13,546 nucleotides of DNA from the IMG/VR virus record IMGVR_UViG_2565956716_000001. One strand, written 5' to 3'. The notes under the pieces were generated by a model. It was given only the letters and a program-made list of their open reading frames with translations. It did no database searches and had not been told where the DNA came from. Made by a program: the position numbers and the translations under genes. Of this stretch, positions 1-13,546 are shown in pieces (position 1 is the stretch's first letter; every line of letters begins with the position of its first letter). Source of the DNA: a virus. Its lineage: Duplodnaviria; Heunggongvirae; Uroviricota; Caudoviricetes.

Positions 1-1164
1 TTACGCCTTCTTTATATCCTCCATAATTCCACAGTGGGACATATTTGGGACATTATCACCAAAAATGTCGTCTATTTTCCTTGCATGCTCTGTCAAATGA
101 TTAGGCGCAAGGTGAGCATACCTACGAACCATTTCTATGGACTCCCATCCGCCCATTTCCTGAAGCACAGATAATGGGACGCCTGACTGGATCAGCCAGC
201 TTGCCCAGGTGTGTCTGAGGTCATGGAAACGGAAATCTTCAATTCCTGCACGACGACAAGCTGATAGCCATGATGTCTTGCTGTCGATGCGCATCTTCCT
301 GACCGCAGGCGTTGATGTTCCATCTGCTCGCTTAGCCGCCTTGGTATGTACAAACACCCATTTGTGATGCTTGCCTATTTGATCACGCAACACTTTACAG
401 GCGGTATCGTTCAGCGCCACACCAATGGCGCGGTTTGATTTGCTCTCTTCTGGATTCACCCAGGCAACTCGTCGCTGCATGTCGATTTGTTGCCATTCCA
501 GATTTATGATGTTCGACTTTCTCAGACCAGTTGCCAGCGCAAACTTGACGACAGATTTCAGTGGTTCGGGGCACTCATCAATAAGGCGTTTTGCTTCCTC
601 CTTTTCCAGCCATCTGACGCGCTTGTTTCTGACCGCTGGTATCTTGATGACAGGCGCTTTTTCCAGCCACTTCCAGTCGCGTTCTGCAGCACGGAGAATG
701 GCCTTTATCATGGCAAGATGCTTTGCCTTTGTCTGAGTTGATACTGGCTTTGGTTCATAAACAGGCGGTTCTTTACCTTTCCTGATGGCGGCCTGAACTT
801 TCTGTTTCCATATTTCTTTCGTCTTTCTGTTATGCATTCTGCTTACAGCAGAGTAAATCTTTGCCTCCGAGATATCTTTAAGCCTTATACCCTCAAAATG
901 TTCAAGCCAGAACTCAATCCGGCTTTTATCTGAATCGAGAGATTTTTTATCAGCTTTTTCTTCAAGCCATCTTAGGCAGGCCTCTTCAAAAGTGACATCA
1001 GGTAAATCCCCTAGCTTTTCTACTCGCCAGAGTTCTGCTTTTCGCTTGTCGTGCAACTCCTGAGCTTGCCGCTTGTCCTTTGTGCCAAGAGATTCCTTAA
1101 TTCGTTTCCCGCCCGGGAGCGAATACGAGGCATACCATATTTCATTTCTGCGGAAGAGTGACAT
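1..1164 (-). CDS. intD: Phage tyrosine integrase (P22/DLP12 Int family)
   Basis: 387-aa ORF with C-terminal tyrosine-recombinase motifs (HDLRHTWAS ... VRRYAHL). ATG at 1164 is preceded by a GAGGAAAG Shine-Dalgarno. N-terminus MSLFRR..WYASY..GKR is typical of P22-type integrases. The window starts on its stop codon, so the att site lies outside. Confidence 0.95.
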
Positions 1165-1391
1165 TTTCTTTCCTCTGTTATGCCATCACCCGCGCTCACC
1201 TGGACAGTATGCAGCGGAGACTGAAGCGCCGCAATGCAGGCTTGCCGTGTTGTGAGGTAAGGAGATTTTGGCTTGGTTGGATCTTTACGTGTTGCCTGTA
1301 GGCGGCCTGTTCGTATCCAGTTGGTGGCGGTTGGTCTGGATATCTGAAGAAACTGACAGGCCTCATCGAGTGTGAGGCTGTATGGCTCCAT
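1020..1391 (-). CDS. xisD: Excisionase (HTH DNA-binding, P22 Xis-like)
   Basis: ATG at 1391 with GGTGA RBS, overlapping the upstream stop as TAATG. N-terminal [26 protein letters not shown] is an excisionase-type HTH. The 3' end overlaps the int start by about 145 nt, as in many int-xis pairs. The longer 151-aa frame in the ORF track is probably a 5' over-extension. Confidence 0.65.
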
Positions 1392-1696
1392 TATTTCACC
1401 TCTTGCTGTGTCATTGTTGAAAAATGGATAACAGCTCGTTGCTGCCAGACGATCCAACCGAGAGTCATATCCCATGCCATGTATTCGTTATCGCCGTTTT
1501 TTGCTCTCCGACGATCTACTAAGTCACCGAAACGCTTTTCCATGAATAATTCATAGGCTTCGCGTTCATCTGGCTCTACTTCCAGAGATACGAGTGCGAT
1601 TTCATAAGCACGGCGCTCAATATCGTCTCGAACCTCTAGGCTGCTGATTCGTTCTTTGATTTCTTTAATCAGTTCTTTATTGGTAAATGTGGTCAT
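1391..1696 (-). CDS. Hypothetical acidic phage early protein (ea-like)
   Basis: 101-aa ORF whose ATG overlaps the upstream stop (TAATG) and whose stop overlaps the xis ATG, suggesting translational coupling. Codon usage is coherent; no family recognised. Confidence 0.5.
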   Translation of the reverse strand: MTTFTNKELIKEIKERISSLEVRDDIERRAYEIALVSLEVEPDEREAYELFMEKRFGDLVDRRRAKNGDNEYMAWDMTLGWIVWQQRAVIHFSTMTQQEVK

Positions 1697-1980
1697 TATG
1701 CTCCAGCCTCCGGTGCTTTTGGCATTACTGCCCAGTGAGTGATATTGACGTTTTCAAGGTCCCCGACCTGAAATGTCCACTGCCATTCTCCGGTTTCTTT
1801 TTGTCCCCAGGTGTACCAGAGAGAACGCCAGCCAATCAGCCAGCCTTCTCCATTAGCATCAAATAACAGAACACTTTCATTTGCTGGTGGCAGTTCAGCT
1901 GACACTGGTATTATTTTGTTTTCCAGTGCCCGCACATTTAGCTTCAAGCGCGTCGAATTTACGTACCAGGTACTCAGCAT
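1696..1980 (-). CDS. Hypothetical phage protein with DUF551-like C-terminus
   Basis: 94-aa ORF. The C-terminal W-rich segment ending ..ITHWAVMPKAPE resembles the DUF551 signature (..THWMPLPEPP) common in enterobacterial prophage early regions. Chained to the downstream ORF by stop/start overlap. Confidence 0.5.
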   Translation of the reverse strand: MLSTWYVNSTRLKLNVRALENKIIPVSAELPPANESVLLFDANGEGWLIGWRSLWYTWGQKETGEWQWTFQVGDLENVNITHWAVMPKAPEAGA

Positions 1981-2049
1981 TTGTTTCGTTCACTTTCAGA
2001 TCTCGCGGTACACATTTCCCGCGAAGAAACCCTTCCATTTCGAAAACAT

Positions 2050-2256
2050 TCATGCGCATTTGCGTAACTCCGATAAATCGTTAAAACGTTCCATAAACAT
2101 CCCGTAGGCATGACCCGGTGCCAGTGGAATCACGTTGAACATCTCTGTTGCCGGGATGCCTTCCAGTACAGGCCAGAAAGAGCCATCATCAAGCCCGAGA
2201 TCGCGGCGTTCGGTTGCCAGCATGATGAGATCGGCATATTTCACGGGTGTACTCAT
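2050..2256 (-). CDS. Hypothetical small protein (first gene of leftward int-proximal operon)
   Basis: 68-aa ORF from the ATG at 2256 (the ORF track extends to a TTG at 2274). No strong RBS and no recognised domain. Confidence 0.3.
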   Translation of the reverse strand: MSTPVKYADLIMLATERRDLGLDDGSFWPVLEGIPATEMFNVIPLAPGHAYGMFMERFNDLSELRKCA

Positions 2257-2777
2257 AACTGGGGGTAACCGCAATGCGTCGAATGTTTATCAGCTTAACG
2301 TTGCGAAGCTTCAGGCAGCGGCATTTTCTCAACTGTCAGATTCTGACCCGTCAAAATCTGACGCATCAAAATCTGACCCGTCAAAATTTGATGCGTCGAA
2401 ATCTGGCAAAAAAGCGGGTTTTCACCCGTCAGAATCTGGCGGGGATCCGTCAGTAAAATCAAAACATGATCCGTCAGATAAAAAAACTTCTCGTCCGGAC
2501 GCTTCGCAACCGGACACGCAGACGGCTGAACAGGAGTTTTTAACTCGCCATCCTGATGCGGTTGTATTCAGCCCTAAAAAGCGCCAGTGGGGAACGCAGG
2601 ATGATTTGACCTGCGCACAGTGGCTCTGGAAAAAAATCATCGCCCTGTACGAGCAGGCCGCCGAATGTGACGGCGAGGTGGTTCGTCCCAAAGAACCGAA
2701 CTGGACAGCCTGGGCAAACGAAATTCGCCTGATGTGTGTGAAGAGTGGTATCTGTCAGGGAATTACGTGGGGGCTTA
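2222..2777 (+). pseudogene. Lambda O-like replication initiator remnant (5'-truncated), containing the origin iterons
   Basis: The open frame runs through the iteron array, encoding a low-complexity linker (SDSDPSKSDASKSDPSKFDASKSG...), then about 90 protein-like codons (..AQWLWKKIIALYEQAAECDGEVVRPKEPNWTAWANEIRLMCVKSG..). Where an N-terminal DNA-binding domain should be encoded, the sequence is occupied by minus-strand ORFs. Beyond 2777 the frame turns G/R-rich and overlaps a better gene in another frame. Confidence 0.35.
2336..2410. repeat. Tandem 15-bp direct repeats (five copies, consensus TCAAAATCTGACCCG); putative ori iterons
   Basis: Read directly: tcagattctgacccg / tcaaaatctgacgca / tcaaaatctgacccg / tcaaaatttgatgcg / tcgaaatctggcaaa. 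Degenerate copies (gtcagaatctggcg, gtcagtaaaatc, gtcagataaaaaaac) and A-rich tracts follow to about 2485. Confidence 0.65.
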
Positions 2778-3104
2778 ATGACGACGTTAACTCAATGCCA
2801 GCAGCAGGTGCTGGATATGCTGATTTCTTACCAGAAAGAACGTGGCTTCCCGCCAACCAATCAGGAGGTGGCTACCATGCTGGGATACCGTTCAGTGAAT
2901 GCAGCGGTGGAGCATCTTCGCGCACTGGAGAAAAAAGGCGTCATCACGATAAAGCGTGGCGTGGCCCGGGGCATCACGCTTCATACCGCGGTGAAGGACG
3001 ACGACAGCGAGGTGGCCGGGATTATCCGCGCACTGCTTGCTGGTGAGGAAAACGCCAGGCTGCGTGCAGCCCACTGGTTACATGAGAGGGGGCTGAAAGT
3101 ATGA
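2778..3104 (+). CDS. LexA N-terminal DNA-binding-domain-like protein (winged HTH) lacking the S24 peptidase domain
   Basis: 108 aa from the ATG at 2778 (GGGGG upstream). MTTLTQCQQQVLDMLISYQKERGFPPTNQEVATMLGYRSVNAAVEHLRALEKKGVI aligns along its length with the LexA N-terminus ([56 protein letters not shown]). It ends in a short helical-looking tail and its stop overlaps the rusA ATG (ATGA). Confidence 0.7.
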   Translation: MTTLTQCQQQVLDMLISYQKERGFPPTNQEVATMLGYRSVNAAVEHLRALEKKGVITIKRGVARGITLHTAVKDDDSEVAGIIRALLAGEENARLRAAHWLHERGLKV

Positions 3105-3490
3105 AGCTGATTCTGCCTTTTCCACCCAGCGTGAACACCTACTGGCGACACCCCAACAAAGGGGCATTTGCTGGTAAGAGCCTGATAAGCGCGGCGGGGC
3201 GAAAATTCCAGAGTGCGGCGTGCACAGCAATAGTTGAGCAGTTACGTCGTCTGCCGAAACCAACGTCGGCACCTGCTTCAGTGGAGATCGTGTTGTTTCC
3301 TCCGGATAACCGGATCCGCGATCTGGACAACTATAACAAGGCGCTGTTTGACGCCCTGACCCACGCGGGTGTGTGGGAAGACGACAGTCAGGTGAAAAGA
3401 ATGCTGGTGGAGTGGGGACCGGTTATCCCGGAAGGGAAGGTCGAGATCACTATCAGTAAGTACGAGAAAACGGCGGGTGCAGCCGCCTGA
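3101..3490 (+). CDS. rusA: RusA-family Holliday junction resolvase
   Basis: 129 aa with GAGAGGGGG RBS. The motif RDLDNYNKALFDALTHAGVWEDDSQV matches the RusA catalytic-region signature (RDLDN...FDAL...DD.QV). Confidence 0.85.
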   Translation: MKLILPFPPSVNTYWRHPNKGAFAGKSLISAAGRKFQSAACTAIVEQLRRLPKPTSAPASVEIVLFPPDNRIRDLDNYNKALFDALTHAGVWEDDSQVKRMLVEWGPVIPEGKVEITISKYEKTAGAAA

Positions 3491-3509
3491 TCAAGAGGAG
3501 AAACGAAGT

Positions 3510-4307
3510 ATGAATAATCTGATGGTCATTGATGGTATTGAAGTTCGTCGTGATGCTTATGGGCGTTACAGCCTGAACGATCTGCACAGGGCTGCCGGTT
3601 CTCTGGATAAGCATAAGCCTGCATTCTGGCTCCGCAATGAGCAAACTGAACGTTTAATAAGCGAGTTGCAGATTTGCAACTCGGTCAATATAGAGCCAGT
3701 TAACGTTATTCGTGGCGGAAATAACCAGGGGACGTATGTCTGCAAAGAACTGGTGTATGCCTATGCAATGTGGATCAGCCCGTCATTCCATCTGAAGGTG
3801 ATCCGTACTTTCGATATGGTAACCAGCGCATCGGAAAAATTATCCGGGCAGGCTGCTGACAAGATGCAGGCTGGCGTGATTCTGCTGGACTTTATGCGCC
3901 GGGAGTTAAACCTGTCTAACTCTTCAGTGCTTGGTGCCTGTCAGAAACTCCAGGAGGCTGTTGGCTTACCGAATCTGGCACCGCGCTATGCCATTGATGC
4001 TCCTGCTGACGCGCCTGATGGCTCAAGCCGTCCCACGCTGTCACTGAGTGCACTGCTGAAGCAGTATGGTATCCGCCTGACAGCTAATCAGGCATATCAC
4101 CAGATGGTGAAGCTGGGGATCGTCGAGCAGCGCGAACGATACAGCCGTACCGCGATTAACAACATCAAAAAATTCTGGTCGCTGACAGCGAAAGGCTGCA
4201 TGTTCGGCAAGAACATCACCAGTCCCGCAAATCCGCGCGAGACGCAGCCGCATTTCTTCGAATCCCGATTCCCTGAGCTGTTAAAGCTGCTCGATACCGT
4301 TCATTGA
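3510..4307 (+). CDS. KilA-N domain DNA-binding protein (Roi/antirepressor-like)
   Basis: ATG at 3510 with AGAGGAG RBS. The N-terminal MNNLMVIDGIEVRRDAYGRYSLNDLHRAAG...KPAFWLRNEQT is a typical KilA-N domain; the C-terminal half is unassigned. Confidence 0.8.
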   Translation: MNNLMVIDGIEVRRDAYGRYSLNDLHRAAGSLDKHKPAFWLRNEQTERLISELQICNSVNIEPVNVIRGGNNQGTYVCKELVYAYAMWISPSFHLKVIRTFDMVTSASEKLSGQAADKMQAGVILLDFMRRELNLSNSSVLGACQKLQEAVGLPNLAPRYAIDAPADAPDGSSRPTLSLSALLKQYGIRLTANQAYHQMVKLGIVEQRERYSRTAINNIKKFWSLTAKGCMFGKNITSPANPRETQPHFFESRFPELLKLLDTVH

Positions 4308-4308
4308 G

Positions 4309-5304
4309 GTGACCGTGAGAGCACTACTGACCCCTGAAATTGCCCCGCGTATGGGGATCGTATTGTTCAGGCCCGGTTCAGAGCTGATGCCCCTGTTTAT
4401 GCAGGGGCGTGTACTGCTGGAGCCTGAGCCGGAGCATTATTCATCTTTCGCCAGTGGTGCCGTTCCCGCGGCATCACAACCGCTGGCGGATGATCCTGCC
4501 GTTCGGGCCGTGTTCCGTAATGAGGCAGTGATTCGTCGTGCTGGTGGGGTGGAATGTCTTGAAAGCTGGTTACTTCGTGAAAAAGGCTGCCAGTGGCCTC
4601 ATTCCGACTGGCACAGCGAGAACATGACCACAATGCGACACGCGCCGGGCGCAATCCGTCTGTGCTGGCACTGCGATAATCAGTTACGTGATCAGTTCAC
4701 GGAGCGGCTGGAATCAATGGCAACGGATAACTGTGCCCGTTGGGTGTTGTCTGTAGTCCGTCGGGATCTCGATTTTAATGATAACCATGCCGTGACAATG
4801 CCGGAACTGTGCTGGTGGCTGGTTCGTAATGACCTGGCGGATGCCTTACCGGAAAGCGCAGCCCGTAAGGCACTGAGATTACCGAAGTCTGTTTTGCCGT
4901 CTGTCACTCGGGAAAGTGACCTTGTGCCTTCGGTTCCTGCCACCAGCATTATCCAGGATAAAGCGAAAAAGGTGCTGGCGCTGAAAGTGGATCCGGAGTC
5001 GCCGGAGTCTTTTATGTTACGCCCCAAACGTCGTCGCTGGGTTAATGAACAGTACACGCGCTGGGTTAAGACGCAGCCGTGTGCATGTTGTGGAAAGCCA
5101 GCTGATGATCCGCATCATCTGATAGGCCATGGTCAGGGTGGAATGGGTACAAAAGCGCATGACCTTTTTGTGCTGCCTTTGTGCAGAAAACACCACGACG
5201 AACTGCATGCGGATACCGTGGCATTTGAAGAGAAGTATAGCTCCCAGCTGGAGCTGATATTTCGTTTTATCGATCGCGCACTGGCGATTGGTGTGCTGGC
5301 CTGA
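4309..5304 (+). CDS. DUF968-family protein with C-terminal HNH-like motif
   Basis: 331-aa ORF. The C-terminus [31 protein letters not shown] is the cysteine/histidine motif of DUF968 proteins found next to Q in lambdoid prophages. Start is uncertain: GTG at 4309 sits 1 nt after the upstream stop, with internal ATG alternatives. Confidence 0.7.
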
Positions 5305-5321
5305 TTTTGTGGAGAAAGTTA

Positions 5322-5705
5322 ATGCGTGATATTCAGATGGTTCTTGAACGTTGGGGAGCGTGGGCGGCTAATAATCATGAAGATGTGACCTGGTCGTCCA
5401 TTGCCGCCGGTTTTAAGGGATTAATTCCTTCAAAAGTAAAATCTCGCCCGCAATGTTGTGACGATGACGCGATGATCATTTGCGGGTGCATGGCCCGTCT
5501 GAAAAAGAACAACAGCGATTTGCACGATTTATTAGTAGATTATTATGTAGTCGGTATGACATTCATGTCACTGGCAGGTAAGCATTGCTGCTCTGATGGT
5601 TATATCGGGAAAAGGTTACAGAAGGCTGAGGGCATAATTGAAGGGATGTTAATGGCATTAGATATCCGGTTAGAGATGGATATCGTTGTTAATAACTCTA
5701 ATTAA
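5322..5705 (+). CDS. quuD: Late-gene antiterminator Q (DLP12 QuuD-type)
   Basis: 127 aa from the ATG at 5322 (GGAGAAAG RBS); the ORF track begins 5 codons earlier at a [21 protein letters not shown]... with a Cys-rich zinc-binding region ([12 protein letters not shown] ... HCC) fits the small Q antiterminator family. Confidence 0.85.
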
Positions 5706-5728
5706 TATGCCAATTGTTTACTGAAAGT

Positions 5729-5756
5729 TATTAAAAATGGGGCGTTGCAACGCCCC
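5729..5756 (-). terminator. Intrinsic terminator for minus-strand (porin) transcripts
   Basis: Perfect palindrome GGGGCGTTGCAACGCCCC at 5739-5756, followed on the minus strand by ATTTTTAAT. On the plus strand it is followed by CAAAAATAAA, so it works in one direction only. Confidence 0.55.
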
Positions 5757-5844
5757 CAAAAATAAAGGGTAATATATAACAGAAGGTTTATATAGTTAGA
5801 AGCAAGGTTGTGCTCCTAAAGGAAGTGGCTTGAGGGAGCCACTT

Positions 5845-5885
5845 ATATGTTGGGGAGGCAACGCCTCCCGCAACATATCTTTTTC
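5845..5885 (+). terminator. Intrinsic terminator on plus strand downstream of Q (candidate tR'-like)
   Basis: Long hairpin ATATGTTG-GGGAGGC-AAC-GCCTCCC-G-CAACATAT at 5845-5878, followed by CTTTTT at 5879-5884. It lies about 140 nt after the Q stop, matching the lambda arrangement in which a short PR' transcript ends at tR' unless Q-modified. Confidence 0.5.
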
Positions 5886-5894
5886 GTAATCAGA

Positions 5895-6992
5895 TTAGAA
5901 CTGGTAAACCAGACCTACAGCAACGATGTCATCAGTGCTTACACCGAGTGCTTTAGTGAAGTCATTTTTGTCAAGCAGGTTGATTTTGTAATCAACGAAA
6001 GTAGACATATTTTTGTTGAAGTAATAGGTTGCACCTACATCAACATATTTGACTAAGTCCTGATCGCCCCATACTCCAAGATCCTTACCTTTAGATTGCA
6101 GGTAAGCAACGGACGGACGCAGACCGAAATCGAACTGATATTGTGCAACAGCTTCGAAGTTTTGAGCTTTATTAGCAACGAAGTGATCAGCAAATACAGT
6201 CATATTCTGGGTTTCAGAATAGGTAGTGGCCAGGTAAATGTTGTTAGCGTCATATTTCAGACCTGCGGCCCAAACTTCTGCATTTTTACCGGAAGCAAAT
6301 ACTTCAGGAAGAACTTTCCCTGCATTAACTTGAGTGTCGGTACGATCAGATTTCGCATAAGTTGCACCGATACCGAATCCTTCGTATTCATAGGTAGCAG
6401 AGAAACCGAAGCCATCACCGTTACCTTCGGTGTAGTTATCGAAATCGCTACGATCGTTTTTGCCTTGGTACTGAGCAGCAAAGTTCAGACCATCAACCAG
6501 ACCAAAGAAGTCGTTGTTACGATAGGTTGCAACACCAGTGGTGCGACCAGTCATGAACACATCTGTTTGGGTCCAGGTATCGCCACCGAATTCTGGCAGA
6601 ACGTCAGTCCACGCACCGATGTCGTATGCTACACCGTAGTTACGGCCGTAATCGATTGAGCCGTAGTCACCGAATTTCAGGCCTGCAAATGCAAGACGGG
6701 TTTTGTCTTTGGAGGAACCTTGAGATTCAGCGCGGTTGCCTTTGAATTCATATTCCCACTGACCGAAACCAGTCAGCTGATCGTTGATTTGGGTTTCGCC
6801 TTTGAAGCCCAGACGAACATAAGTAGTATCACCATCATCTGCATCGTTAGAGGAAAAGTAGTGCTTGGCATTAACTTTCCCGTACAGATCCAGCTTGTTA
6901 CTGTCTTTATTATAAATTTCAGCTGCCTGAGCAGACATCGCCATCAGTACTGATGCAGCTACAGCAGAAATTGCCACTGTTAATTTTTTCAT
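5895..6992 (-). CDS. nmpC: Outer-membrane general porin NmpC (OmpC/OmpD/Lc family), intact
   Basis: 365 aa with signal peptide [27 protein letters not shown] and a C-terminal ..VAVGLVYQF beta-barrel motif ending in Phe. ATG at 6992. Uninterrupted ORF in this window. Confidence 0.95.
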
Positions 6993-7470
6993 CGTGAGCC
7001 CTTTTTTTTGAACTATTATTAAAAAATGATGTCACTGCGCGATAAATATTCATCTAATCAATGTGATTATTTCAAGATGTAAGTTTTAGTTTCTCATTTA
7101 ATTTGTGAAGTAGATCTCTATTTTTATCTGAACTTTTTCTATCGAAACCTATTTATGGCTCTTATTTGAACAAAAATAAATCTATTAGCTAATTTATATT
7201 AATGGCTGTTATTTATGGTGGTTCTATAATTTGTCTGTTTAATTTAAACCAGCTAAAAATAACGCTGGAAATTATTTATTGGTTATTTGTTGAAGTTTTC
7301 TTATGTATTTGTGGTGGTGTTTTGAACACTCGGTAGCATTCTCATAAATATCATTCAGTGGTTTACGTACGTAAAAAATTGGTTATGCTGTTAAGAGTGG
7401 TTACTTCGTCACACAGCTTAAACCCGCCGTCGAGCTGGTTTTTCCATTTTTTGAGTCTCGATATTAGCTG
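6993..7470. promoter_or_regulatory. AT-rich regulatory region upstream of nmpC (porin promoter, likely nucleoid-protein bound)
   Basis: About 480 bp of strongly AT-rich non-coding sequence between the divergent porin and lysis genes, with no ORF of 60 aa or more. No promoter elements could be assigned with confidence. Confidence 0.3.
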
Positions 7471-7528
7471 ATAACTCAATACCTGAGTTATTCACTGACT
7501 CGGAGTCAGTTACGTTTCTGCTTTTTTG
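7471..7528 (+). terminator. Tandem hairpins plus T-tract upstream of the holin gene (possible terminator or operator)
   Basis: ATAACTCA-ATACC-TGAGTTAT (7471-7491) and ACTGACT-CGG-AGTCAGT (7494-7510), then CTTTTTTG at 7521-7528. The T-run lies about 11 nt from the second stem, so terminator function is uncertain. Confidence 0.3.
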
Positions 7529-7580
7529 CGATACGTTGTATTCCCTCAATTTACACCCGCTTTGTCTGCGAGGTGGGGTT

Positions 7581-7796
7581 ATGAAATTCATGGATAAGTT
7601 AACAACTGGAGTCGCCTATGGCACCTCAGCAGGTAGTGCCGGTTACTGGTTTTTACAGCTGCTCGATAAAGTCACTCCCTCACAGTGGGCAGCAATAGGT
7701 GTGCTGGGTAGCCTGGTATTTGGCCTGCTGACGTACCTGACAAACCTTTATTTCAAGATTAAAGAAGATAAGCGCAAGGCTGCGAGAGGTGAATAA
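7581..7796 (+). CDS. essD: Class II holin (phage 21 S / pinholin type) with dual-start motif
   Basis: 71 aa from the ATG at 7581 (GAGGTGGGG RBS), with a second in-frame ATG at 7590 (M-K-F-M), the dual-start arrangement of S21 holin/antiholin. Two transmembrane segments and a charged C-terminus ([13 protein letters not shown]). Stop overlaps the next ATG as TAATG. Confidence 0.9.
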
Positions 7797-8293
7797 TGCC
7801 TCCATCATTACGAAAAGCCGTTGCTGCTGCTATTGGTGGCGGAGCAATTGCTATAGCATCAGTGTTAATCACTGGCCCAAGTGGTAACGATGGTCTGGAA
7901 GGTGTCAGCTACATACCATACAAAGATATTGTTGGTGTATGGACTGTATGTCACGGACACACCGGAAAAGACATCATGCTCGGTAAAACGTATACCAAAG
8001 CAGAATGCAAAGCACTCTTGAATAAAGACCTTGCCACTGTCGCCAGACAAATTAACCCGTATATCAAAGTCGATATACCGGAAACAACGCGCGGCGCTCT
8101 TTACTCATTCGTTTACAACGTGGGTGCTGGCAATTTTAGAACATCGACGCTTCTTCGCAAAATAAACCAGGGCGATATCAAAGGCGCATGTGATCAGCTG
8201 CGTCGCTGGACATACGCTGGCGGTAAGCAATGGAAAGGCCTGATGACTCGTCGTGAGATTGAGCGTGAAGTCTGTTTGTGGGGGCAACAGTGA
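7796..8293 (+). CDS. rrrD: SAR endolysin (T4-lysozyme-like muramidase, phage 21 R type)
   Basis: 165 aa. The Gly/Ala-rich N-terminal segment [20 protein letters not shown] is a signal-anchor-release domain. Catalytic Glu35-Asp44-Thr50 are in the expected spacing ([18 protein letters not shown]). Confidence 0.92.
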
Positions 8294-8751
8294 GCAGAGT
8301 AACCGCGATTATATCCGCTCTGATTATCTGCATCATCGTCAGCCTGTCATGGGCGGTCAATCATTACCGTGATAACGCAATCGCCTACAAAGCCCAGCGC
8401 GACAAAAATGCCAGAGAACTGAAGCTAGCGAACGCGGCAATTACTGACATGCAGATGCGTCAGCGTGATGTTGCTGCGCTCGATGCAAAATACACGAAGG
8501 AGTTAGCTGATGCGAAAGCTGAAAATGATGCTCTGCGTGATGATGTTGCCGCTGGTCGTCGTCGGTTGCACATCAAAGCAGTCTGTCAGTCAGTGCGTGA
8601 AGCCACCACGGCCTCCGGCGTGGATAATGCAGCCTCCCCCCGACTGGCAGACACCGCTGAACGGGATTATTTCACCCTCAGAGAGAGGCTGATCACTATG
8701 CAAAAACAACTGGAAGGAACCCAGAAGTATATTAATGAGCAGTGCAGATAG
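8290..8751 (+). CDS. rzpD: i-spanin Rz
   Basis: 153 aa from the GTG at 8290, which overlaps the endolysin stop (GTGA); an alternative GTG lies at 8278. N-terminal transmembrane helix followed by a coiled-coil-like periplasmic domain. Confidence 0.85.
8510..8692 (+). CDS. rzoD: o-spanin Rz1 lipoprotein, embedded in the +1 frame of Rz
   Basis: 60 aa with AAGGAG RBS at 8497-8502 and ATG at 8510. Lipobox LVVVGC and a proline-rich mature part ([15 protein letters not shown]), wholly nested inside the Rz gene. Confidence 0.8.
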
Positions 8752-8782
8752 AGCTGACCATATCGATGGGCAACTCATGCAA

Positions 8783-9076
8783 TTATTTTGAGCAATACAC
8801 ACGCGCTTCCAGCGGAGTATAAATGCCTAAAGTAATAAAACCGAGCAATCCATTTACGAATGTTTGCTGGGTTTCTGTTTTAACAACATTTTCTGCGCCG
8901 CCACAAATTTTAGCTGCATCGACAGTTTTCTTCTGCCCAATTCCAGAAACGAAGAAATGATGGGTGATGGTTTCCTTTGGTGCTACTGCTGTCTGTTTGT
9001 TTTGAACAGTAAATGTCTGTTGAGCACATCCTGTAATAAGCAGGGCCAGCGCAGTAGCGAGTAGCATTTTTTTCAT
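8783..9076 (-). CDS. borD: Bor lipoprotein (serum-resistance / outer-membrane lipoprotein)
   Basis: 97 aa with lipoprotein signal MKKMLLATALALLITGC. Matches the lambda Bor family along its whole length as recalled. Confidence 0.9.
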   Translation of the reverse strand: MKKMLLATALALLITGCAQQTFTVQNKQTAVAPKETITHHFFVSGIGQKKTVDAAKICGGAENVVKTETQQTFVNGLLGFITLGIYTPLEARVYCSK

Positions 9077-9366
9077 GGTGTTATTCCCGATGCTTTTTGA
9101 AGTTCGCAGAATCGTATGTGTAGAAAATTAAACAAACCCTAAACAATGAGTTGAAATTTCATATTGTTAATATTTATTAATGTATGCCAGGTGCGATGAA
9201 TCGTCATTGTATTCCCGGATTAACTATGTCCACAGCCCTGACGGGGAACTTCTCTGCGGGAGTGTCCGGGAATAATTAAAAACGATGCACACAGGGTTTA
9301 GCGCGTACATGTATTGTATTATGCCAACGCCCCGGTGCTGACACGGAAGAAACCGGACGTTATGAT

Positions 9367-9777
9367 TTAGCGTGGAAAGATTTGTGTAGTGTTCTGAATG
9401 CTCTCAGTAAATAGTAATGAATTATCAAAGGTATAGTAATATCTTTTATGTTCGTGGATATTTGTAACCCATCGGAAAACTCCTGCTTTAGCAAGATTTT
9501 CCCTGTATTGCTGAAATGTGATTTCTCTTGATTTCAACCTATCATAGGACGTTTCTATAAGATGCGTATTTCTTGAGAATTTAACATTTACAACCTTTTT
9601 AAGTCCTTTTATTAACACGGTGTTATCGTTTTCTAACACAATGTGAATATTATCTGTGGCTAGATAGTAAATATAATGTGAGACATTGTGACGTTTTAGT
9701 TCAGAATAAAACAATTCACAGTTTAAATCTTTTCGCACTTGATCGAATATTTCTTTAAAAATGGCAACCTGAGCCAT
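9367..9777 (-). CDS. ybcV: YbcV-like (DUF1398-type) protein
   Basis: 136 aa from the ATG at 9777 (GGAAGG about 9 nt upstream); the ORF track extends to 9900 (177 aa). AT-rich gene in the position occupied by the DUF1398 'envelope protein' ORF of lambda and DLP12. Family assignment is from position and recalled features. Confidence 0.55.
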
Positions 9778-10062
9778 TGGTAAAACCTTCCATGTGATAC
9801 GAGGGCGCGTAGTTTGCATTATCGTTTTTATCGCTTCAATCTGGTCTGACCTCTTTGTGTTTTGTTGATGATTTATGTCAAATATTAGGAATGTTTTCAA
9901 TTAATAGTATTGGTTGCGTAACAAAGTGCGGTCCTGCTGGCATTCTGGAGGGAAATACAACCGACAGATGTATGTAAGGCCAACGTGCTCAAACCTTCAT
10001 ACAGAAAGATTTGAAGTAATATTTTAACCGCTAGATGAAGAGCAAGCGCATGGAGCGACAAA

Positions 10063-10269
10063 ATGAATAAAGAACAATCTGCTGATGATCCCTCCGTGGA
10101 TCTGATTCGTGTAAAAAATATGCTTAATAGCACCATTTCTATGAGTTACCCTGATGTTGTAATTGCATGTATAGAACATAAGGTGTCTCTGGAAGCATTC
10201 AGGGCAATTGAGGCAGCGTTGGTGAAGCACGATAATAATATGAAGGATTATTCCCTGGTGGTTGACTGA
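10063..10269 (+). CDS. ybcW: YbcW-like small protein
   Basis: 68-aa ORF ([22 protein letters not shown]...) divergent from the ybcV-like gene, in the position of DLP12 ybcW and lambda p79. Confidence 0.6.
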
Positions 10270-10433
10270 TCACCATAACTGCTAATCATTCAAACTACTT
10301 AACCTGTGACAGAGCCAACACGCAGTCTGTCACTGTCAGGAAAGTGGTAAAACTGCAACTCAATTACTGCAATGCCCTCGTAATTAAGTGAATTTACAAT
10401 ATCGTCCTGTTCGGAGGGAAGAACGCGGGATGT

Positions 10434-10628
10434 TCATTCTTCATCACTTTTAATTGATGTATATGCTCTCTTTTCTGACGTTAGCCTCCGACGGCAGGCT
10501 TCAATGACCCAGGCTGAGAAATTCCCGGACCCTTTTTGCTCAAGAGCGATGTTAATTTGTTCAATCATTTGGTTAGGAAAGCGGATGTTGCGGGTTGTTG
10601 TTCTGCGGGTTCTGTTCTTAGTTGACAT
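10434..10628 (-). CDS. ylcI: Small ribbon-helix-helix (Arc/CopG-like, DUF3950) DNA-binding protein
   Basis: 64 aa. Basic N-terminus (RTRRTTTRNIRF) followed by a predicted strand-helix-helix (PNQMIEQINIALEQKG..FSAWVIEACRRRL). GGGG RBS upstream of the ATG at 10628. Confidence 0.6.
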   Translation of the reverse strand: MSTKNRTRRTTTRNIRFPNQMIEQINIALEQKGSGNFSAWVIEACRRRLTSEKRAYTSIKSDEE

Positions 10629-10779
10629 GAGGTTGCCCCGTATTCAGTGTCGCTGATTTGTATTGTCTGAAGTTGTTTTTACGTTAAGTTGATGCAGATC
10701 AATTAATACGATACCTGCGTCATAATTGATTATTTGACGTGGTTTGATGGCGTAGATGCACGTTGTGACATGTAGATGA

Positions 10780-11016
10780 TAATTATTATCATTTTGCGGG
10801 TCCTTTCCGGCGATCCGACAGGTTACGGGGCGGCGACCTCGCGGGTTTTCGCTATTTATGAAAATTTTCCGGTTTAAGGCGTTTCCGTTCTTCTTCGTCA
10901 TAACTTAATGTTTTTATTTAAAATACCCTCTGAAAAGAAAGGAAACGACAGGTGCTGAAAACGGGCTTTTTGGCCACTGTCGTTTCCTTTCTCTGTTTTT
11001 GTCCGTGGAATGAACA
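10780..11016. other. Lambda-type cos site: cosQ, cosN (12-nt cohesive end GGGCGGCGACCT at 10828-10839), cosB
   Basis: The string ..gatccgacaggttacg|gggcggcgacct|cgcgggttttcgctatttatgaaaattttccggtttaaggcgtttccgttcttcttcg.. matches the joined right and left ends of phage lambda as recalled. The Nu1 start lies about 190 nt from cosN, as in lambda. Confidence 0.8.
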
Positions 11017-11562
11017 ATGGAAGTCAACAAAAAGCAGCTGGCTGAAATTTTCGGCGCGAGTATCCGTACCATTCAGAACTGGCAGGAGCAGGGAATGCCC
11101 GTTCTGCGAGGCGGTGGGAAGGGTAATGAGGTGCTTTATGACTCTGCCGCCGTCATAAAATGGTATGCCGAAAGGGATGCTGAAATTGAGAACGAAAAGC
11201 TGCGCCGGGAGGTTGAAGAACTGCGACAGGCCAGCGAGACAGATCTCCAGCCAGGGACTATTGAGTACGAACGCCATCGACTTACGCGTGCGCAGGCCGA
11301 CGCACAGGAGCTGAAAAATGCCAGAGACTCCGCTGAAGTGGTGGAAACCGCATTCTGTACTTTCGTGCTGTCGCGGATCGCAGGTGAAATTGCCAGTATT
11401 CTCGACGGGATCCCCCTGTCGGTGCAGCGGCGTTTTCCGGAACTGGAAAACCGACATGTTGATTTCCTGAAACGGGATATCATCAAAGCCATGAACAAAG
11501 CAGCCGCGCTGGATGAACTGATACCGGGGTTGCTGAGTGAATATATCGAACAGTCAGGTTAA
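11017..11562 (+). CDS. nohD: Terminase small subunit Nu1
   Basis: 181 aa, [36 protein letters not shown]..., collinear with lambda Nu1 over its full length. N-terminal winged HTH and P-loop-like GGGKG. Confidence 0.95.
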
Positions 11563-13546
11563 CAGGCTGCGACATTTTGTCCGCGCCGGGCTTCGCTCAC
11601 TGTTCAGGCCGGAGCCACAGACTGCCGTTGAATGGGCGGATGCTAATTACTATCTCCCGAAAGAATCCGCATACCAGGAAGGGCGCTGGGAAACACTGCC
11701 CTTTCAGCGGGCCATCATGAATGCGATGGGCAGCGACTATATCCGTGAGGTGAATGTAGTGAAGTCTGCCCGTGTCGGTTATTCCAAAATGCTGCTGGGT
11801 GTTTATGCCTACTTTATAGAGCATAAGCAACGCAACACACTTATCTGGTTGCCGACGGATGGTGATGCCGAGAACTTTATGAAAACCCACGTTGAGCCGA
11901 CCATCCGCGATATTCCGTCGCTGCTGGCGCTGGCTCCGTGGTATGGCAAAAAGCACCGGGATAACACGCTCACCATGAAGCGTTTCACCAATGGTCGTGG
12001 CTTCTGGTGCCTGGGCGGTAAAGCGGCAAAAAACTACCGTGAAAAGTCGGTGGATGTGGCGGGTTATGATGAACTTGCTGCCTTTGATGATGATATTGAA
12101 CAGGAAGGCTCTCCGACGTTCCTGGGTGACAAGCGTATTGAAGGCTCGGTCTGGCCAAAGTCCATCCGTGGCTCCACGCCCAAAGTGAGAGGCACCTGTC
12201 AGATTGAGCGTGCAGCCAGTGAATCCCCGCATTTTATGCGTTTTCATGTTGCCTGCCCGCACTGCGGGGAGGAGCAGTACCTTAAATTCGGCGATAAAGA
12301 GACGCCGTTTGGCTTCAAATGGACGCCGGATGATCCCTCCAGCGTGTTTTATCTCTGCGAACATAATGCCTGCGTCATCCGCCAGCAGGAGCTGGACTTC
12401 ACTGATGCCCGTTATATCTGCGAAAAGACCGGGATCTGGACCCGTGATGGCATTCTCTGGTTTTCGTCATCCGGTGAAGAGATTGAGCCACCGGACAGCG
12501 TGACCTTTCACATCTGGACGGCGTACAGCCCGTTCACCACCTGGGTGCAGATTGTCAAAGACTGGATGAAGACGAAAGGGGATACGGGAAAACGTAAAAC
12601 CTTCGTGAACACCACGCTCGGTGAGACATGGGAAGCGAAAATCGGTGAACGTCCGGATGCTGAAGTGATGGCAGAGCGGAAAGAGCATTATTCAGCGCCC
12701 GTTCCTGACCGTGTGGCTTACCTGACTGCCGGTATCGACTCCCAGCTGGACCGCTACGAAATGCGCGTATGGGGATGGGGGCCGGGTGAGGAAAGCTGGC
12801 TGATTGACCGGCAGATTATTATGGGCCGCCACGACGATGAACAGACGCTGCTGCGTGTGGATGAGGCCATCAATAAAACCTATACCCGCCGGAATGGTGC
12901 AGAAATGTCGATATCCCGTATCTGCTGGGATATTGGCGGGATTGACCCGACCATTGTGTATGAACGCTCGAAAAAACATGGGCTGTTCCGGGTGATCCCC
13001 ATTAAAGGGGCATCCGTCTACGGAAAGCCGGTGGCCAGCATGCCACGTAAGCGAAACAAAAACGGGGTTTACCTTACCGAAATCGGCACGGATATTGCAC
13101 CACCAGATATTCCTGCTGGCTTTGTGGCTGTTTTCAACAGTGATGAGGCATCGTGGCATCTCGTTGAAGATCATCGGGGTAAAACGGTTTATGACGTGGC
13201 TTCCGGCGACGCGTTATTTATTTCTGAACTCGGCTCATTACCGGAAAATGTCACCTGGTTATCCCCGGAAGGGGAGTTTCAGAAGTGGAACGGCACAGCT
13301 TGGGTGAAGGATACGGAAGCAGAAAAACTGTTCCGGATCCGTGAGGCGGAAGAAACAAAAAACAGCCTGATGCAGGTAGCCAGTGAGCATATAGCGCCGC
13401 TTCAGGATGCTGTGGATCTGGAGATCGCAACGGAGGAAGAAACCTTGTTGCTGGAAGCCTGGAAAAAGTATCGGGTGTTGCTGAACCGTGTTGATACATC
13501 AACTGCACCTGATATTGAGTGGCCTACGAACCCTGTCAGGGAGTAA
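11537..13546 (+). CDS. Terminase large subunit gpA (N-terminal ~519 aa) fused in frame to the C-terminal ~150 aa of tail-fibre assembly protein Tfa; deletion remnant
   Basis: GTG start at 11537 overlapping the Nu1 3' end. Residues 1-519 follow lambda gpA ([14 protein letters not shown]...[10 protein letters not shown]...). After ..LTEIGTD (codon 519 at 13091-13093) the sequence continues [35 protein letters not shown]...[13 protein letters not shown], which is the Tfa C-terminal region. The window ends on its stop codon. Confidence 0.88.

Follow-up and report, generated by a model that had tools for sequence, protein, structure and literature searches.

Absence of the immunity region from a DLP12-family prophage next to argU: the very probable scar of one microhomology-mediated deletion

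Why should the leftward early genes of a lambdoid prophage lie directly against a remnant of its replication genes, with no immunity region between them? This arrangement was noted at positions 2257–2335 in the first-pass annotation of a stretch of DNA 13,546 nucleotides long (hereafter referred to as the window; IMG/VR record IMGVR_UViG_2565956716_000001). We consider it very probable that this interval bears the scar left by a single microhomology-mediated deletion in a lambdoid prophage of the DLP12 family, located next to argU. The features of the left part of the window are as follows.

1–1164, minus strand: intD integrase (RefSeq, Pfam)
1020–1475, minus strand: xis-like HTH_17 ORF (RefSeq, Pfam)
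1391–1696, minus strand: yfdT (RefSeq, Pfam)
1696–2059, minus strand: DUF551/EaE-like gene, frameshifted (RefSeq, Pfam)
2050–2270, minus strand: 3' remnant of yfdR (HD-family 5'-deoxynucleotidase), approximately 72 C-terminal codons of 178, flagged as a pseudogene in RefSeq
2263–2270, no strand: junction 1, the single kept copy of an 8-bp direct repeat, GGGTAACC (blastn overlap and junction alignment)
2263–2740, plus strand: remnant of an O-like replication initiator, codons 78–236 of 313, matching phrog_391 (replication initiation O-like) and flagged as a pseudogene in RefSeq
2335–2480, no strand: origin iterons inside the O remnant, with a 15-bp period and the consensus TCTGACCCGTCAAAA

A megablast search of 5,426 complete E. 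coli genomes identified three chromosomes, those of MSHS 472, OHT76-1 and 18AR0366, that match the entire window at 100% identity (a second junction, considered below, is the exception). In MSHS 472, the matching stretch begins 15 bp from the tRNA-Arg (argU) gene, beside fimZ/sfmF. The RefSeq gene order in this strain starts with intD, yfdT, a frameshifted phage gene, the yfdR pseudogene, an HTH (O-like) pseudogene and PerC, continues with a LexA-family protein, RusA, KilA-N, DUF968, quuD and a porin, and ends with essD, rrrD, rzpD, bor, ybcV, ybcW, ylcI, nohD and terminase fragments. The window therefore displays the characters of the DLP12 family: the argU site beside fimZ, the left end being occupied by an intD-type integrase; QuuD, the nmpC-type porin and the full set of genes from essD to nohD; and defectiveness, the immunity region, functional replication genes and virion structural genes all being absent. 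The window is a DLP12-family cryptic lambdoid prophage adjoining tRNA-Arg (argU) in E. coli.

A 22-kb prophage locus of strain RM10809-3 (NZ_CP023165; hereafter referred to as L002) was used as the intact reference. By blastn, window positions 1–2270 corresponded to L002 1501–3769, positions 2263–2740 to L002 8940–9417, and positions 2738–13094 to L002 10102–20458. Approximately 5.17 kb (L002 3770–8939) is thus absent from the window, with a break at 2263–2270, inside the interval originally flagged, at which the two alignments overlap by the 8 bp GGGTAACC. Phage PhiR29_1 yielded the same endpoints (blastn matches to 41–2309 and then to 7346–7832), and both flanks of the break were collinear with L002 and PhiR29_1, with 98–99.6% identity. 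No copy of the lost DNA was found elsewhere in the window by blastn or tblastx.

The endpoints in the intact locus read CTGGGGGTAACCCGT within yfdR and GCCAGGGTAACCGCA within O, and the window retains one copy of GGGTAACC. This 8-mer occurs only twice in the entire intact 22-kb locus (L002 3762 and 8940), in both cases at an endpoint, and once in the window. Under a random-endpoint model, the probability of at least 8 bp of junction homology arising by chance is approximately 1e-4. No IS or att-like sequence was found at junction 1, which therefore has all the hallmarks of a microhomology-mediated deletion: a repeat at both ends, one copy kept, and no IS or att. The simplest reading of this repeat pattern is a RecA-independent, microhomology-mediated deletion, probably by slippage or illegitimate recombination. 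The two direct copies of GGGTAACC, one inside yfdR and the other at O codon ~77, would have recombined, or slipped during replication, with the removal of one copy and the intervening ~5.17 kb.

The ~80 bp said to separate the first leftward ORF from the iteron-bearing frame is not an intergenic spacer: two truncated genes are fused end to end there, with O-derived codons starting at the junction itself (2263/2271). Likewise, the ATG at 2256, previously taken as a gene start, is an internal Met of yfdR, and RefSeq treats this gene as a yfdR remnant lacking its N-terminus. The HD/YfbR Pfam matches of intact YfdR lie at residues 41–104, and the remnant has no Pfam match. The iterons of the first-pass annotation are real, with five to six good copies at 2335–2445 and degenerate copies up to ~2480. 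A small repressor or cro-like gene overlooked at 1980–2340 would have undermined the claim of a missing immunity region, but none of the 15 ORFs of at least 20 aa in this interval had an HTH or repressor match; all are alternative frames of yfdR or O sequence, every base being collinear with one or other of these two genes.

The yfdR frame is also split in other prophages (L005–L008), giving ORFs of 102 + 68 aa in L006 and of 110 + 68 aa in the other three loci, the gene pairs lying at 3670/3672–3978/4004 and 4001–4207; the Met equivalent to window 2256 is called as a start there. This recurrent break is independent of the junction 1 deletion. In draft assemblies, no TTG-start version of the yfdR remnant is on record, and the records of the 68-aa version starting at Met-2256 come exclusively from contigs ending at this point or from a yfdR split into 110 + 68 aa; this version is therefore uninformative about junction 1.

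In the annotation of L002, the interval from yfdR to the O-like gene is occupied by yfdQ, yfdP, a pair of hypothetical genes, a minus-strand XRE-family regulator, a plus-strand HTH gene, ymfL and a DUF4222 gene. Pfam and PHROGs searches showed the lost segment to include the part of yfdR matching the HD/YfbR models, DUF2303 (yfdQ) and yfdP, a cI-like repressor of 230 aa (HTH_3 + Peptidase_S24), a divergent cro-like gene encoding an 86-aa HTH_3 protein, and ymfL (Phage_CP76/"CII-like transcriptional activator"), together with the DUF4222 gene. The first 77 of the 313 codons of O, including the HTH_36 winged helix at residues 23–70, were also lost. The O remnant consequently lacks this N-terminal domain, and it also lacks the C-terminal 77 residues. 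The DNA to the left of cI and the cI–cro intergenic region (L002 7464–7560) are deleted from the window; in L002, this intergenic region contains repeated TTGCG...CGCAA-type motifs, which are likely operators. Intact relatives thus hold cI-, cro- and cII-like genes and a full O exactly between the two genes truncated here, bearing out the initial view that the immunity region is missing through deletion and that this is not a native layout. The divergent cI-like (HTH + Peptidase_S24)/cro-like pair and the cII-like gene, present in L002, PhiR29_1 and SfII, were not found in the window by annotation, Pfam, blastn or tblastx; nor was a full-length 313-aa O with its N-terminal winged helix, although the iterons have been retained.

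To the right of the O remnant, the window carries a tightly packed operon.

2778–5705, plus strand: rightward operon, tightly packed (Pfam, RefSeq)
2778–3104, plus strand: LexA-DBD protein (Pfam E = 2.9e-19; phrog_362, "transcriptional repressor")
3101–3490, plus strand: RusA (Pfam, RefSeq)
3510–4307, plus strand: KilA-N protein (Pfam, RefSeq)
4315–5304, plus strand: DUF968/HNH protein (Pfam, RefSeq)
5322–5705, plus strand: antiterminator QuuD (Pfam Phage_antitermQ E = 8.5e-54)

The window had been said to contain no repressor, Cro or N-like ORF at all. One repressor-like ORF is in fact present, the LexA-DBD gene, but it does not encode the immunity repressor, and to this extent the statement stands. 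The protein has 108 aa, with no cleavage or protease domain, and shares 51% identity with the LexA N-terminal domain of E. coli. Its gene has a fixed place between PerC/dam and RusA in SfII/PhiR29-type phages, and the identical protein was found in 12,839 blocks of the assembly collection. In 10/10 distinct genomic contexts of this identical protein, and in phages, the operon gene order lies downstream of cI–cro–cII–O. A role as a substitute immunity repressor was considered and rejected, because intact phages with a cI have this gene too, at the same point in the nin region; in addition, there is no canonical SOS box (CTGT-N8-ACAG) in the window.

Could the compact layout be native to a complete element, for example a PICI-like island, a satellite or a family of minimal phages without a lambda-type immunity region? 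The integrase is intact, an xis-like ORF, iterons and a Q–lysis module have been kept, and DLP12-type elements without an immunity region are very common in E. coli (PMC6379469). Nevertheless, both junction genes are fragments of genes found whole in sequenced phages and in thousands of genomes, the O fragment has no DNA-binding domain, and all ten sampled contexts of the downstream operon have a repressor, cro, cII and O upstream. The junction was contiguous in only 3/5,426 complete genomes, approximately 2,500 of which carry one flank or the other. We therefore regard a native layout as extremely unlikely. It is just as hard to believe that junction 1 is an artefact of assembly or sequencing, through a collapsed or mis-joined contig. 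Copies of yfdR and O sequence recur among the prophages of a single genome, and several draft contigs (L010–L012) end within a few bases of the junction, but a repeat of 8 bp is not long enough to make an assembly collapse, and the same junction is contiguous in MSHS 472, OHT76-1 and 18AR0366, with 100% identity across the surrounding 14 kb. Junction 1 is a rare but real event, because three independent complete assemblies contain it.

The exchange of modules between two phages, by homologous or site-specific recombination, or an IS-mediated event, would be in keeping with the highly mosaic nature of lambdoid phages, and in the window an early region of the SfII/CPS-53 type does accompany an int and late region of the DLP12 type. 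However, both flanks match a single intact relative, at the identity given above and with no change of order or orientation, and the only sequence shared by the endpoints is the 8-mer GGGTAACC, with no IS or att-like sequence. This makes mosaic exchange highly improbable as an explanation for the junction, and leaves the simple internal deletion as the preferred reading.

A second junction lies at the other end of the O remnant.

2738–2740, no strand: junction 2, a 684-bp deletion (missing L001 4241–4924/L002 9418–10101)
2741–2778, plus strand: tail of the PerC-family gene (yfdN), last ~12 codons (alignment to L002 10102–10142; Pfam PerC match for the intact protein)

Junction 2 displays GTG microhomology, with imperfect flanking similarity. 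O codons 237–313 are lost with it, as is PerC/yfdN except for ~12 codons, and the O frame runs into the PerC tail in a different reading frame. This deletion is missing from the three complete genomes that otherwise match at 100% identity, and the junction was not contiguous in any of the 5,426 complete E. coli genomes searched with megablast. Its exact 35-mer was absent from GTDB representative genomes and metagenome contigs, and the O/PerC fusion ORF, taken from three alternative starts, had no exact match in the gene catalogue. Either this deletion is peculiar to the source strain or the source was misassembled at this point, and the window is the only sequence showing the O/PerC remnant in this exact state.

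What would the larger deletion mean for expression? The rightward operon ending in quuD has lost the cI–cro intergenic region, in which pR and its operators would be expected to lie, and only the O fragment and antisense yfdR/int sequence are now found upstream of the genes at 2778–5705. Similarly, the leftward yfdR'–DUF551'–yfdT–xis–int arm has been cut from the region upstream of yfdR, in which the leftward early promoter would lie. The repressor and the divergent early promoters would have disappeared in one step, such that the prophage would not have been derepressed; the loss may have been tolerated because the control proteins and early promoters went together. With no repressor for SOS signalling to inactivate, the element should not be inducible. 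Its own origin should also be unable to fire, given that iterons and an O fragment without a DNA-binding domain are all that remain. Both operons, from yfdR' to int on the left and from LexA-DBD to QuuD on the right, would be left without their native promoters, and the leftward arm would also lack the cII-like activator. The expression of QuuD and the lysis cassette would then require weak, fortuitous or local promoters, or Q supplied in trans. Judging from the sequence, the Q operon is probably silent and the prophage non-inducible.

The first-pass annotation had gone further, describing Q and the late genes as cut off from an upstream antitermination cascade. The separation from upstream control holds, in that the pR/operator region has been lost, but an N-dependent cascade is not supported, no N being recognisable in intact relatives. 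No N-like gene is annotated in PhiR29_1 or SfII, and none was detected in L002 with Pfam or PHROGs; the leftward ORFs of L002 between yfdP and cI matched only PHROGs of unknown function and no Pfam family, and no Rfam family, for nut/put-type or other RNAs, scored in the intact immunity region. The demonstrable loss is that of the pR/operator region, not of N. The SfII/PhiR29-type family may possess a very divergent N or an RNA-based system.

The suggestion that the late genes would depend on local promoters fits published work on K-12 DLP12, in which the lysis cassette is controlled by a Q-like antiterminator, RpoE and Hha (PMC7918800) and the nin-region rusA is silent unless IS2 or IS10 inserts upstream (PMC1636454). 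A sigma-70 consensus scan for promoters feeding quuD yielded five matches, versus 10.2 expected from shuffled controls, and was also blank in the cI–cro intergenic region of L002. Being blind to this region of the intact relative, the scan was too insensitive and was set aside as evidence either way. The interval from quuD to the porin gene contains two strong palindromic hairpins, GGGGCGTTGCAACGCCCC at 5739–5756 and ATATGTTGGGGAGGCAACGCCTCCCGCAACATAT followed by CTTTTT at ~5845–5878, which could terminate the converging transcripts and the late leader (tR'-like). The nmpC-type porin gene itself (5895–6992, minus strand) is uninterrupted, with an ORF of 365 aa; as in PhiR29_1, it is placed antisense, with quuD on one side and the lysis genes on the other.

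We also considered whether the remnant might have been kept for a function, with the uncleavable LexA-DBD protein as an SOS-insensitive regulator of the residual operon, or the orphan iterons acting in trans. The iterons could conceivably titrate the O protein of a superinfecting related phage (interference) or be fired by it, in which case the neighbouring Q–porin–lysis genes would be amplified in situ. Taken together, these functional readings are very unlikely. The rarity of junction 1 (3/5,426) and ongoing decay argue for neutral erosion. The DUF551/EaE-like gene, an intact 120-aa ORF in L002 and PhiR29_1, is broken in the window by a 1-bp insertion, an extra C (CC to CCC) at 1929–1931, and the terminase large-subunit frame switches to tfaD-like sequence at ~13094–13108, generating a 669-aa fusion ORF ending at 13546. 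The frameshift, this terminase/tail-fibre-assembly fusion and the 684-bp deletion constitute further decay, and the locus is therefore best described as a grounded, eroding prophage rather than a working unit. In L001, an otherwise 100%-identical locus, host genes follow within ~1.3 kb.

Comparison with K-12 DLP12 revealed the same argU site, 99.3% identity over intD and part of xis (window 1–1259), ~98% identity from quuD through nohD (window 5287–11844), and a tfaD-like right end (blastn). Neither element has an immunity region, a functioning replication module or structural genes. They differ in their early/nin modules, which are unrelated, K-12 having exoD'–peaD'–renD'::IS3–emrE–ybcK–ybcL–ybcM–ybcN–ninE–ybcO–rusA–ylcG; the loss of immunity in K-12 DLP12 was therefore an independent event. 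The porin gene is disrupted by IS5 in K-12 and intact in the window, and the terminase is cut at a different point: in K-12, it is joined ~1.26 kb earlier (equivalent to window 11844), at almost the same tfaD point, the two right endpoints lying roughly 10–15 bp apart in the tfaD sequence. These could be independent deletions with near-coincident ends, or successive events. Within the tfaD-like sequence of the window, there is a full-length match to Rfam IS009 (RF02111) at 13305–13503 on the plus strand (221.6 bits versus a gathering score of 117).

The left arm had been likened to that of P22; the closest left arms are instead of the SfII/SfIV/PhiR29 type and the CPS-53 type (yfd genes). PhiR29_1 and PhiR49_1 (hosts listed: ECOR13 and E. 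coli C) and the Shigella serotype-converting phages SfII and SfIV share the gene order of the window, with 97–99.6% DNA identity, and the early region is 97–98% identical in sequenced phage genomes. The maps of PhiR29_1 (46.3 kb) and SfII run int, xis, yfdT, DUF551, yfdR, a variable stretch, cI, cro, cII, a hypothetical gene, O, PerC, dam, LexA-DBD, RusA, KilA-N, DUF968 and Q; in PhiR29_1, the variable stretch consists of yfdQ and yfdP, and porin, S, R, Rz and Bor follow Q. Unlike the window, PhiR29_1/SfII-type phages keep the ~5-kb yfdQ–yfdP–cI–cro–cII–O(5') segment, a full O, a full PerC and the structural genes. These intact relatives resemble lambda in having a divergent repressor/cro pair, a cII-like gene, an O-like gene with internal iterons, a nin-like region and Q. 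They differ from it in that homologues of N and P are undetectable, and the repressor, cro and cII belong to other sequence families.

The CPS-53 (KpLE1) prophage of K-12 (yfdK–yfdT, with yfdO an O-like pseudogene) has the same yfdT, yfdR, yfdQ, yfdP, yfdN (PerC) and O-like families, and differs from the window in its integration site and deletions. K-12 strains gave a 100% match to the O-derived half of the junction 1 probe at a locus outside DLP12, which we take to be CPS-53, presumably a decayed prophage of the same early-region type as the window.

Junction 1 is an ordinary deletion scar in a well-known cryptic prophage family, and not a new kind of system. The truncated yfdR and O genes were already flagged as pseudogenes in RefSeq, and it is already well documented both that cryptic prophages lose immunity and replication genes and that the Q and lysis genes of DLP12 retain a residual, host-controlled expression. 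The exact endpoints and likely mechanism have been fixed for one more prophage-grounding deletion, which matters little beyond annotation. The map of lambda, with its N–cI–cro–cII order, should not be transferred to the SfII/PhiR29-type family, which has no recognisable N, and a DLP12-type prophage with an SfII/PhiR29-type early region has lost its immunity independently of K-12 DLP12.
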